Shown piece by piece: positions 10,745-14,540 of a stretch of DNA of 64,000 nucleotides (position 1 is its first letter; every line of letters begins with the position of its first letter). This DNA comes from Escherichia coli (lineage in GTDB: Bacteria; Pseudomonadota; Gammaproteobacteria; Enterobacterales; Enterobacteriaceae). Made by a program: the position numbers and the translations under genes. Below the pieces are notes generated by a model. That model made no database searches, was not told where the DNA came from, and worked only from the letters and a program-made list of their open reading frames with translations. The stretch lies in the NCBI RefSeq assembly GCF_029227855.1, contig NZ_CP074356.1. One strand, given 5' to 3'.

Positions 10745-10883
10745 TTACAGCCAGTTCTTACGCTTAAAGTACAGATACGGTGTCAGGCCCGCGAGGATCA
10801 TAAAGATAATCGCGCCAGGGTAGCCGAAGCCCCACTTCAGTTCTGGCATAAACTCAAAGTTCATGCCATAGCTGGAGGCAATC
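10745..10883 (-). pseudogene. duplicated 3' fragment of corA (last ~46 codons and stop)
   Basis: About 135-140 bp nearly identical (about 8 mismatches) to 12456..12595 at the true corA 3' end; encodes ...[43 protein letters not shown] versus ...[29 protein letters not shown] in intact corA. Confidence 0.8.
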
Positions 10884-11071
10884 CGCGTAGGAAAAAGTTT
10901 CCTAATCGGTAAATTCAACATTTTGTTATTAACAATGAGCAAGACCAATCATTAACGAGGTTCTCTTCAGAGATGTAATGAAAAAATGTGAAGTTTACTT
11001 CTTTTTTAAATATTTTTTTACCCTAGCATTTGTTCTCGAATTGATATTGAGCTTAAATATAACCAAGGCAA

Positions 11072-11926
11072 ATGCAAATGAATAACATATTACTTCCGCC
11101 AATTAATATTCCCTGTACACTTTTCGAAACTATTAGTTTATTCGATGATTTTTCTGCTGATGATATGCAATATGGTGATATGGTAGAACAAGACTTTCTC
11201 TCACTCGGCCTAAGCGATATCTCAGCAAAAGTTGATCCTTACAGACTTATTAAATACCATTTCCCTGGCCCAGGTTCTATTAATGTTGCTTTTAGTGCCT
11301 CAAGTTCCGGAACAAAAATATCACAACGTGAATGCACTGATATTTTATTTGCAGAAATGAAAGAACTAGCAAAAATGCTTTCCTTTTTTGGACAATATAA
11401 AACACTTATCGAAGATCTGATTGAACATTTTAGATATGGAAATGGCAGCAATTTTCATAGCCAACAATTAAATTTATCTTTTCATGAAAAAATAAATAAA
11501 TATGGTTATAATAGTCCAATACGAATAATCAAAGAATGTATCGAAAATGGCATTAATTCAACTCCCTCGACAGGATACCAACCTCTTATCCTGCAAAGCA
11601 TTAAAACCAAATTACTTTCATCAAGACTAAATAAATTTAATGACTTCGAGGACAGTTTTAATGGCTTAGGAATCAGTGTTCATGATATTTCAGCTCAAAA
11701 AATATCTCTTTTAAGTTTTCAAAAATACGCTATAGGATGGAGTGCAACAATTCATTTTGTAGCACAGGACCACTTCGGTCTTGATGTAACTGATATCAAA
11801 AACAAGACTTACAGCAAATATAGATTTTTTCGCATATGGTTCTTTTTACAACGGCATAAAGACTTTGCTTTCAAACCTTTTTTCACCAATTTTAACACTA
11901 TCGAAAGAATCGAAAATTATCTATGA
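11072..11926 (+). CDS. hypothetical protein, 284 aa, no recognisable motif; first gene of a low-GC two-gene cassette
   Basis: Long ORF in a region of about one-third G+C; AAGG Shine-Dalgarno 7 nt upstream; no signal peptide or TM segment evident; stop overlaps the start of the next ORF (ATGA). Confidence 0.6.
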   Translation: MQMNNILLPPINIPCTLFETISLFDDFSADDMQYGDMVEQDFLSLGLSDISAKVDPYRLIKYHFPGPGSINVAFSASSSGTKISQRECTDILFAEMKELAKMLSFFGQYKTLIEDLIEHFRYGNGSNFHSQQLNLSFHEKINKYGYNSPIRIIKECIENGINSTPSTGYQPLILQSIKTKLLSSRLNKFNDFEDSFNGLGISVHDISAQKISLLSFQKYAIGWSATIHFVAQDHFGLDVTDIKNKTYSKYRFFRIWFFLQRHKDFAFKPFFTNFNTIERIENYL

Positions 11927-12414
11927 AAAGCAAACTCCAGAAAATTATATTATGTTTATTTCTTCTATGCTGCATCTATAATTTATGGACATTGCGTCCT
12001 GTACAGATTTTGTATACATACTCTGATGCTGGCAATTCAGTCTTTCTGGTCGTTGATCATCTGCCATGGACTGACAGCGATAAAATAAATTGGTATCTGA
12101 AGCATCAGAATGAAATTAAAAATCAACATCCCCTACCAGAAGGTAGTTGGCATACCTGGTATGTCATTGATATCGGTAATGGCTTCACTGACTATAAAAA
12201 ATATATCGAAGGGCCGTATGAAGATCTCTACTGTTTCCCGACAATTAAGAGCAATGATAATTGCATCGTGAAAAATTACTTAATGGTTATTAATGAATAC
12301 CCTTATCGTAACACTCATATTGGTATTAACGATTTTACTGAGTATCAATTAACACAAGAAAATAAAATAGAGCGAGTTTTCAATCCGCATGACTTTAAAT
12401 ACGACAATTTTTAG
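11923..12414 (+). CDS. hypothetical protein, 163 aa, with N-terminal signal peptide or membrane anchor; second gene of the cassette
   Basis: N-terminus MKSKLQKIILCLFLLCCIYNLWTL (basic then hydrophobic); Tyr/Trp/Asn-rich remainder; translationally coupled to the upstream ORF; ends 41 bp before the corA stop (convergent). Confidence 0.6.
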   Translation: MKSKLQKIILCLFLLCCIYNLWTLRPVQILYTYSDAGNSVFLVVDHLPWTDSDKINWYLKHQNEIKNQHPLPEGSWHTWYVIDIGNGFTDYKKYIEGPYEDLYCFPTIKSNDNCIVKNYLMVINEYPYRNTHIGINDFTEYQLTQENKIERVFNPHDFKYDNF

Positions 12415-12455
12415 AAATAAGCCGGATAAAAAAATAGCTTTATCCGGCACTCATA

Positions 12456-13406
12456 TTACAGCCAGTTCTTGCGCTTAAAGTACAGATACGGTGCCAGGCC
12501 CGCGAGGATCATAAAGATAATCGCGCCTGGGTAGCCGAAACTCCACTTCAGTTCTGGCATAAACTCAAAGTTCATCCCATAGCTGGAAGCAACGAGCGTC
12601 GGCGGCAGGAATACCACGGATACCACCGAGAAGATTTTGATGATGCGGTTCTGCTCGATGTTGATAAAGCCCATCGCCGCCTGCATCAGGAAGTTCACCT
12701 TCTGGAACAGGGATTCGTTATGCGGCAGCAGGGATTCGATATCTCGCAGGATTTCACGCGCCTGCTCCAGTTGCCCACCCGGTAAACGCGCCTTGCGTAC
12801 CAGGAAGTTGAGCGCACGCTGGGTATCCATCAGACACAGGCGAACTTTCCAGCCGATATCTTCCAGTTCCGCCAGCGTGGAGAGCGCCTCATCGTACTCA
12901 TCGCCCTGATGCCCTTCCATAATTACCCGGCTCAACTGCTCCAGATCGCTGTAGATATTTTCAATTTCATCTGCCAGCTGTTCGATTTTGGTTTCGAACA
13001 GATCCAACAGCAGCTCGTAGGCGTTACCGTCCACCATTGACTGGCTACGGGCGCGCATACGATACAGACGGAATGCAGGCAGTTCACGCTCACGCAGAGT
13101 AAACAGACGACCATCACGGATGGTAAATGCCACAGTGGAGTTACCGGCGTGATCTTCCGCATCTTCAAAGAAGAAGAAGGAGTGAATATGCAGGCCGTCA
13201 TCGTCTTCAAAGAAACGTGCCGATGCTTCGATGTCTTCCAGTTCCGGGCGGGTTGCCAGGCTCTGGCCAAGTTCAGATTGTACGCGCAGTCGCTCGTCGT
13301 CGTCCGGTTCGACAAGATCAATCCATACTGCATTTACAAGGGGTTGTGACTCTTCGACTTCCAGCCGGGTCAGTCGGTTATTTTCCAGTTGAAATGCGCT
13401 CAGCAT
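12456..13406 (-). CDS. corA: Mg2+/Co2+ transport protein CorA
   Basis: 316 aa from [12 protein letters not shown]; C-terminal TM helices with the YGMNF signature (GMN motif). Confidence 0.93.
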
Positions 13407-13775
13407 GACCGGGACTCCCAATGCTTAAAATATCGGACAGTTCGGTGGGCACACAGAAACAAATTGGGTTTCAGACCATTAAACAGCCTGACTCAGCGCG
13501 ACGGGAAAAATTGAGGTCGCTGACAACCGCTAAGGCTATCAGCAAAAAGGGATAGCCTTAGGAGTTGATCCTGGATGACAGGATAGTGAGCCAGTATCTA
13601 CTGGGTGTGTCCAAGGCGAATGTCCTCTTAGAGTGATCGTGCGCGCATGTTACGCCAGCAAAATTTTGCCGTCAACACGCAACAGAACACCACAGAACAA
13701 TAGTTGAACTTCGCGCTTTTTGGTACTCGTCAAGGTCGCTAACAGGATAAAAAAATCCAACATCCAGGACCTATA

Positions 13776-14540
13776 ATGGCGCATCGGCTACTCATTGGTA
13801 AAGGAATGATCACCTTGAATCTCAAACGGATTTTTCTCGCCCTCACCTTACTTCCCTTGTTTGCTGTTGCCGCTGATGATTGCGCACTCTCAGATCCGAC
13901 GCTGACCGTACAGGCGTATACCGTTAATCCTCAAACAGAGCGGGTGAAAATGTACTGGCAAAAAGCCAATGGCGAAGCGTGGGGAACTTTACATGCTCTG
14001 CTGGCGGATATGAATAGTCAGGGTCAGGTGCAGATGGCGATGAACGGCGGCATCTATGATGAAAGCTATGCGCCGCTCGGTTTGTACATCGAAAACGGTC
14101 AGCAGAAGGTGGCGTTAAATCTCGCTTCAGGTGAAGGGAATTTCTTTATCCGTCCTGGCGGCGAGTTTTATGTCGCGGGAGATAAAGTCGGCATCGTTCG
14201 TCTGGATGCCTTCAAAACCAGTAAAGAGATTCAGTTTGCGGTGCAGTCAGGGCCAATGTTGATGGAAAACAGTGTAATTAATCCGCGTATTCATCCCAAC
14301 GTCGCCTCACGTAAAATTCGTAACGGTGTTGGGATTAATAAACATGGGAATGCCGTGTTTTTGTTGAGCCAGCAGGCGACAAATTTTTATGATTTTGCCT
14401 GTTATGCCAAAGCGAAACTGAACGTTGAGCAGCTGCTTTATCTTGATGGCACGATTTCACATATGTATATGAAAGGCGGGGCAATCCCGTGGCAACGCTA
14501 TCCTTTTGTCACCATGATTTCCGTAGAGCGGAAAGGTTAA
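13776..14540 (+). CDS. yigE: conserved protein of unknown function (YigE-like), probable signal peptide
   Basis: 254-aa ORF with an N-terminal hydrophobic region (IFLALTLLPLFAVAADD); synteny between corA and uvrD. Confidence 0.8.
   Translation: MAHRLLIGKGMITLNLKRIFLALTLLPLFAVAADDCALSDPTLTVQAYTVNPQTERVKMYWQKANGEAWGTLHALLADMNSQGQVQMAMNGGIYDESYAPLGLYIENGQQKVALNLASGEGNFFIRPGGEFYVAGDKVGIVRLDAFKTSKEIQFAVQSGPMLMENSVINPRIHPNVASRKIRNGVGINKHGNAVFLLSQQATNFYDFACYAKAKLNVEQLLYLDGTISHMYMKGGAIPWQRYPFVTMISVERKG

Follow-up and report, generated by a model that had tools for sequence, protein, structure and literature searches.

The closest described system is the corA leader of Salmonella enterica and Escherichia coli K-12, which is the same element as the one analysed here, with the same position, promoter, 18-codon UUG-initiated uORF (corL/ysgD) and stems A-E. 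In Salmonella, this leader folds either into stems A and B or into stems C and D; formation of B exposes a rut region (nt 89-177), while C and D sequester it. The corL frame overlaps stem A, and its efficient translation promotes B and thereby Rho-dependent termination (PMC5314796). Stem-loop E (nt 152-172) governs where Rho acts, and RNA polymerase pauses at U192 and at U240, the latter inside the corA start codon (PMC5314796; this article by Kriner & Groisman, NAR 2017, recapitulates their own 2015 J Mol Biol paper).

In E. coli, regulation of corA by Mg2+ requires the 5′ region and not the promoter (Vezina Bedard 2024, RNA Biol, PMC11552253). According to the same study, corL lies within a three-way junction whose stem A sequesters the uORF's Shine-Dalgarno sequence, a Rho R66S mutation leads to more polymerase in the open reading frame as judged by RNA polymerase ChIP, and Rho/NusG-dependent termination occurs in vitro at U211 and G216-U220. 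Mutants for the ON state and for the OFF state act as predicted, changing the corL start codon from UUG to AGG raises corA expression while changing it to AUG lowers it, and a corL-lacZ fusion rises 1.7-fold with Mg2+ (PMC11552253). YsgD has been found to be translated as a small protein by ribosome profiling and also by reporter-transposon mapping (PMC12350097 for the latter), and a table in a 2025 review includes the corA leader system. This leader is a textbook case of translation efficiency being converted into a Rho-dependent transcription decision, and it sets how much of its main Mg2+ channel the cell makes.

Other leaders share this logic. The mgtA leader with its uORF mgtL (Rfam Mg_sensor, RF01056) likewise places a uORF inside a 5′ three-way junction, adopts two exclusive folds and, in Salmonella, uses Rho-dependent termination to repress a Mg2+ importer at high Mg2+, but it has no detectable sequence or structure homology with the corA leader. 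Furthermore, corL contains a single proline, whereas mgtL is proline- and acid-rich, and the corA promoter, unlike that of mgtA, is not controlled by PhoP; corA also responds to Mn2+ (PMC11552253). In the mgtCBR operon (uORFs mgtM and mgtP) and the tna operon (tnaC), as in corA, access of Rho to the nascent RNA depends on whether a short leader ORF is translated. Neither has any sequence relationship with the corA leader, and they differ from it in that mgtCBR uses a Rho-antagonising RNA element and in tna tryptophan makes a ribosome stall, which then shields the rut site.

The window considered here is a 64,000-nt stretch of an E. coli genome, in which corA and yigE are divergently transcribed. 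We conclude with high confidence that the interval between the two genes consists of the corA promoter and a leader of about 234 nt that acts as a translation-coupled, Rho-dependent transcription attenuator. The anatomy of the interval, its two alternative folds, their conservation and the identity to the K-12 sequence come from our own analysis; published experiments supply Rho dependence, the response to Mg2+, the consequences of mutating the corL start codon or the stems, and the positions of pausing and termination.

Anatomy of the corA-yigE interval

The features of the interval and its borders are as follows, where leader nucleotide numbers are obtained by subtracting the window position from 13641.

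13407-13775, strand-neutral: corA-yigE intergenic region, 369 nt (from open reading frames, reading of the sequence, and RefSeq annotation of other E. coli in which the region is identical)
12456-13406, minus strand: corA coding sequence, 316 codons, ATG at 13406-13404 and stop at 12456 (open reading frame; protein identity to K-12)
13419-13415, minus strand: corA Shine-Dalgarno sequence GGGAG
13647-13675, minus strand: corA sigma-70 promoter, −35 TTGACG at 13675-13670, 17-nt spacer, −10 TAACAT at 13652-13647
13638-13640, minus strand: corA transcription start; A13640 is the Salmonella +1 and G13638 the +1 of the E. coli constructs
13407-13640, minus strand: corA 5′ leader of the mRNA, 232-234 nt (from start site, corA ATG, fold and column identity)
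13623-13629, minus strand: corL Shine-Dalgarno sequence AAGAGGA (leader nt 12-18), 8 nt before the UUG, paired with CCCUU in stem A in the fold of nt 1-95
13558-13614, minus strand: corL (ysgD) uORF (leader nt 27-83), 18 codons plus stop with a UUG start, encoding MDTPSRYWLTILSSRINS*; a RefSeq coding sequence, 'YsgD/CorL family protein'

The sequence-only reading had pointed to a long gap between corA and yigE, and this gap is exactly the 369-nt intergenic region, with the ATG of yigE on the plus strand at 13776. It had, however, taken the whole gap as a corA leader of about 370 nt. Only about 232-234 nt are leader, given the start site from the literature; the remainder is the corA promoter and the yigE upstream region, which accounts for about 100 nt on the yigE side. 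Nor is the interval wholly non-coding, as had been assumed, since RefSeq annotates the 18-codon ysgD/CorL within it; when the interval was compared with complete E. coli genomes by megablast, every match listed carried a coding sequence named ysgD, 'protein YsgD' or 'YsgD/CorL family protein'. The accompanying suggestion that the leader might hold a short ORF is borne out by the same annotation (13614-13558). In an annotation, the gap should not appear as empty intergenic DNA; it should carry the corA promoter, the leader and ysgD/corL.

The promoter TTGACG-17-TAACAT is the sole promoter-like site that a consensus scan found in the region. Its left border is indicated by an E. coli strain with a different divergent neighbour gene, in which homology to the window starts at 13683, 8 nt upstream of the −35 hexamer; this position therefore marks the left edge of the corA module.

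Placement of the start site draws on two sets of published coordinates. Salmonella positions C47-A54, 152-172 and C175-177 fit the window only if +1 is 13640, and the Salmonella pairing of C47-A54 with U148-G155 is in register on the window, with a 2-nt offset past the variable loop. Primers oFM4, PBADCorArev, F-pLacUV5-corA and corA41-71txR set +1 at GATCAC, which is 13638. The start sites used by the two laboratories for numbering the leader thus differ by 2 nt, and the in vitro termination positions agree with 13639. Coordinates carried over from the corA leader papers have an uncertainty of ±2 nt.

Alternative folds of the leader and their conservation

The leader as a whole is strongly structured: its predicted fold has a free energy of −78.8 kcal/mol (z = −4.35), and 0 of 200 shuffles was as good. 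ViennaRNA folded nt 1-128 into A and B (−40.4 kcal/mol) and nt 1-146 into C and D (−44.3 kcal/mol). Structure prediction, which the sequence-only reading had proposed as a check on its suggestion of a regulatory RNA, thus reproduced both folds, and what was found is not a short leader lacking conserved structure but one of 232-234 nt in which the structure is conserved; alternative stem-loops that gate Rho-dependent termination are also what has been published (PMC5314796, PMC11552253). The corA leader is accordingly predicted to have two mutually exclusive conformations, A+B (OFF) and C+D (ON), built from the following elements.

13547-13629, minus strand: stem A, a three-way junction of the OFF state (leader nt 12-94; −22.2 kcal/mol, z −1.95), the minimum-free-energy fold of nt 1-95 and of the segment
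13617-13611 with 13561-13555, minus strand: base helix of stem A (leader nt 24-30 with 80-86), in which the corL start region pairs with the stop region
13604-13591 and 13584-13568, minus strand: two hairpins inside stem A (leader nt 37-50 and 57-73)
13517-13545, minus strand: stem-loop B of the OFF state (leader nt 96-124; −16.7 kcal/mol, z −5.1; 96% of cells paired), with the flanking pyrimidine-rich rut exposed
13524-13567, minus strand: stem-loop C of the ON state (leader nt 74-117; −20.4 kcal/mol, z −6.0; 98.6% of cells paired)
13498-13520, minus strand: stem-loop D of the ON state (leader nt 121-143; −4.7 kcal/mol, z −3.6), GCGAC/GUCGC with a pyrimidine-rich loop of variable length
13471-13491, minus strand: stem-loop E (leader nt 150-170, Salmonella nt 152-172; −7.4 kcal/mol, z −4.4)
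13468-13466, minus strand: CCC after stem-loop E, corresponding to Salmonella C175-177

The 5′ arm of stem-loop C begins at the corL stop codon, and C is mutually exclusive with both A and B. The assignment of these stems is independently confirmed by published mutants, because the mutant primers change exactly the B and C arms that we had assigned: the OFF mutant primer corAOFF1F rewrites both arms of stem B in a compensatory manner and destroys the 3′ arm of C, and the ON mutant swaps the outer CAACU/GGUUG helix of stem C, which breaks B. Furthermore, the bases mutagenised in Salmonella (G155 G156 C157 U158, G166 G167 U168 C169 and C175-177) are all in register in the window.

For a comparative set, one genome per species was scanned for exact matches to the pattern TCAGGCT-N7-GGTCTGAAACCC. 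This yielded 73 loci from Escherichia, Salmonella, Citrobacter, Enterobacter, Kluyvera, Kosakonia, Leclercia, Lelliottia, Atlantibacter, Phytobacter, Pseudescherichia and other genera, a set in which stem-loop E is invariant by construction, since loci were ascertained by an exact match to it, and from which taxa with a diverged E, such as Klebsiella, are absent. The 60 distinct 316-nt segments have a mean column identity of 88%. Across these 60 Enterobacteriaceae leaders, 97.4% of the cells that should pair do so under the OFF model and 96.6% under the ON model, as against 15-47% in slid controls. All cells (100%) are paired in the base helix of stem A and in stem-loop D, where the only changes are G-U wobbles. 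Unguided RNAalifold also recovered both hairpins within stem A, as well as C, D and E.

Compensatory covariation in the stems amounts to one pair, a U-A/A-U exchange in the second stem A hairpin (leader nt 57-73; 30 versus 23 sequences), and all other positions show one-sided changes or no change. Support from covariation is thin because the leader is almost invariant. At alignment column 164, an A/G polymorphism leaves the position paired in B as well as in C, which is what dual constraint on a base would predict.

The corL reading frame and its signals are among the most constant parts of the alignment. All 60 aligned enterobacterial sequences share both promoter hexamers without change, and the corL Shine-Dalgarno sequence (GAGGAC at this site), the UUG start codon (60/60) and the first nine corL codons are likewise invariant. 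The length of corL is 18 codons in 59 of the 60 leaders, and its N-terminus is conserved as DTPS[RKT][YC]WL, while its C-terminus varies. A conserved length and N-terminus together with a variable C-terminus are consistent with the site at which corL ends, the foot of stem C, having a role.

An extended alignment of 66 distinct enterobacterial sequences places these values in context. Leader columns have a mean identity of 0.94 and promoter columns one of 0.92, compared with 0.69-0.79 in the 100 nt proximal to yigE; in corA itself, the value is 0.95-0.97 at codon positions 1-2 and 0.70 at position 3. As a separate observation, the first ~25 nt of corA (13406-13381) are 98-99% conserved between genera, third positions included, whereas the next 60 nt are 75-80% conserved. 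This pattern suggests that the regulatory element, in the form of a pause/termination zone or ribosome binding, may extend into the first corA codons.

Rho-dependent attenuation and competing explanations

The published experiments and the anatomy described above can be combined into the following mechanism. RNA polymerase would initiate at 13640/13638 and transcribe the 18-codon corL first. A higher intracellular Mg2+ concentration would favour efficient translation of corL, so that the ribosome proceeds as far as the stop codon, where stem C has its foot, and blocks formation of C. Without stem C, the downstream RNA would fold into stem-loop B, leaving the pyrimidine-rich rut single-stranded. 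Rho could then load and catch a polymerase paused near the end of the leader, with termination at about 13429-13420, just ahead of the corA start codon (OFF). At low Mg2+, poor translation of corL would instead permit C and D to form, sequestering the rut nucleotides; in this state there would be less pausing, and polymerase would continue into corA (ON). Stem-loop E would tune the site and efficiency of Rho action. The features specific to this step were mapped from the published work.

13466-13552, minus strand: rut region, by homology to Salmonella nt 89-177 (PMC5314796); putative Rho binding in the window
13451, minus strand: probable equivalent of the major Salmonella RNA polymerase pause U192, by homology mapping with a 2-nt offset
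13420-13429, minus strand: zone of Rho/NusG-dependent termination in vitro in E. coli (U211 and G216-U220; PMC11552253)

The base identities of U211 and G216-U220 fit 13429 and 13424-13420, respectively, with a numbering uncertainty of ±1 nt. The homologous rut region contains 15 YC dinucleotides, 24 C and 20 G, so its excess of C over G is only mild. A literature search found no E. coli Term-seq or bicyclomycin data on corA. Not all regulation passes through Rho and corL: in the Rho R66S strain, Mg2+ regulation is only lowered, from 3.3-fold to 2.4-fold, the corL-AGG mutant is still regulated 1.3-fold, and about 24% termination occurs in vitro without Rho (PMC11552253). These residual effects imply that additional layers exist.

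The residual regulation of the corL-AGG mutant is one reason to consider that the leader could be a direct Mg2+-sensing riboswitch, in which Mg2+ acting on the RNA itself selects A+B and translation of corL is secondary. According to the E. coli study, Mg2+ may act either on the folding of the RNA or on translation of corL, and at mgtA, whose leader the corA leader resembles in architecture, Mg2+-dependent folding alone modulates Rho termination in vitro (PMC11552253). On the other hand, changes to the corL start codon strongly shift corA expression in the expected direction, and the corL-lacZ fusion itself responds to Mg2+. The strict conservation of the start, length and N-terminus of corL also argues that its translation matters. 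Moreover, neither Mg_sensor nor any other riboswitch family was matched in an Rfam cmscan of 13200-14000 even at E ≤ 10; the only hits, to mir-76, AaHKsRNA54 and sR53, were at chance level and far below gathering scores, and the Rfam release scanned contains no corA leader family. We consider direct sensing of Mg2+ by the RNA to be unlikely as the primary mechanism.

It is also conceivable that hairpin C is mainly a processing site for RNase III, so that the leader would act through the stability of corA mRNA and not through transcription. Hairpin C is a nearly perfect duplex of 16 bp, the E. coli paper refers to work in which RNase III controls the decay of corA mRNA (Lim et al. 2012), and ribonucleases have been proposed as contributors to the residual regulation (PMC11552253). 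RNase III would, however, constitute an additional layer and does not replace the attenuator, since RNA polymerase ChIP and in vitro termination show an effect on transcription (PMC11552253). As an account of what the leader mainly does, processing by RNase III is quite unlikely.

We give still less weight to the idea that the attenuator carries a further layer in the form of either a translated +1 frame overlapping corL or a hairpin occluding the Shine-Dalgarno sequence and AUG of corA. The former, called CDS177, was reported from PIRT-seq as a 32-codon +1-frame ORF with a putative AUC start at leader nt 4, overlapping ysgD/corL, and the same reporter-transposon study noted a ribosome-profiling signal past the ysgD stop codon (PMC12350097). 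In the window, this frame runs from 13637 to 13539 on the minus strand, with a UGA at 13541-13539. If CDS177 were translated, its ribosomes would enter the arms of stems B and C. Among the 60 leaders, 53 keep all 32 codons of this frame open and 4 have it truncated to 12 codons, but it is open mainly because the nucleotides are invariant, and we found no independent support for CDS177 as a conserved gene. The hairpin, at 13425-13402 on the minus strand (GCAUUGGG...CCCG...AUGC), was predicted by RNAalifold and pairs the corA Shine-Dalgarno sequence and start codon; if real, it would add translational control of corA. Its changes are one-sided (wobble-compatible) only, and at −7.7 kcal/mol (z = −0.7) it is indistinguishable from shuffles, so we did not retain it. 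A second ORF past the corL stop, starting at a TTG at 13545 in the corL frame, was likewise rejected as a conserved gene: its start is absent in several genera, and its length ranges over 16-25 codons because the length of the stem D loop changes by non-multiples of 3.

As in a classical attenuator, stem-loop B (13545-13517) followed by the U-rich run CCTCAATTTTT might form an intrinsic, Rho-independent terminator. A scan with a loose consensus does list stem-loop B as terminator-like, with 12 pairs followed by a T-rich tail, and the Rho-free termination seen in vitro (PMC11552253) could be viewed in the same light. However, 6 nt (CCUCAA) separate the stem from the U run, and many of the pairs in the stem are G-U or A-U. 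The mapped products end about 90 nt further downstream, at U211 and G216-U220, and rise with Rho/NusG (PMC11552253), and the spacer and U run are the least conserved and most length-variable part of the leader. On grounds of geometry and of the published termination sites, we regard an intrinsic terminator at stem-loop B as very improbable.

Finally, although divergent gene pairs often have long intergenic regions and the ~100 nt proximal to yigE are poorly conserved, there is next to no chance that the interval is a mere divergent promoter spacer without leader function, given the annotated uORF, the strong structure, conservation at the level of protein-coding sequence and published genetics, and this reading is refuted by reporter fusions that are regulated only when they include the 5′ region, whichever promoter is used (PMC11552253).

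The element in this strain and across E. coli

Rho-dependent attenuation coupled to corL translation is the reading that we carry over to the strain analysed here. The genome used for comparison is of the K-12 type (L002), with ysgD coordinates that differ by no more than 1 nt from those given for BW25113; relative to it, the interval has a single difference, at 13759. This SNP lies upstream of the corA start site, at a distance of 119 nt, and is separated from the ATG of yigE by 17 nt; promoter, leader and corL show no mismatch, and the CorA protein is identical to K-12 CorA (WP_000947159.1). Thus, there is no leader difference relative to K-12, and the only local peculiarities, namely this SNP and an insertion that follows the corA stop codon, are both outside the element. 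Relative to the Salmonella leader, the one in the window is ~4 nt shorter, 2 nt of the difference falling in the stem D loop of variable length and the other 2 nt close to the 3′ end. We infer that the same mechanism operates in this strain, in which corA expression would be inversely coupled to corL translation and to intracellular Mg2+.

The insertion had raised the concern, in the sequence-only reading, that regulation of corA might be disturbed from the other end of the gene. Collinearity with K-12 stops exactly past the corA stop codon, and the next 1,564 nt (10892-12455) have 32% G+C. On either side of the insert lies a 147-nt direct repeat of the corA 3′ end, intact at 12456-12602 and orphan at 10745-10891, the two copies being 93% identical. 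It contains two plus-strand ORFs, at 11072-11926 and 11923-12414, annotated as YPO3983 family and DUF943 family in a strain with identical context. The insert looks like a small island that integrated into the 3′ end of corA and regenerated the reading frame. Since it starts past the corA stop codon, corA is not truncated and the 5′ control region is untouched; the concern is thus unfounded, the nearby island leaves corA and its regulation as they are, and the current understanding of this system is unchanged.

The interval is present in 5425 of 5426 complete E. coli genomes as judged by megablast, and the best match has at least 99% identity in 4864 of the 5443 matching records. The element is therefore one that is already known and well characterised, occurs in nearly all E. 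coli and is unaltered here.

Two minor observations concern the surroundings of the leader in databases. In about 118 of 5,425 E. coli genomes, less than 80% of the interval is covered, and in some E. coli, for example strain ECN24 (L076, 1912-3000), a gene of the SAM hydrolase/SAM-dependent halogenase family takes the place of yigE. In addition, corA leaders identical or near-identical to that of E. coli occur on contigs labelled 'uncultured Alistipes sp.' (L043) and 'MAG: Paenibacillus sp.' (L069), which probably reflects contamination or mis-binning of those metagenome-assembled genomes.
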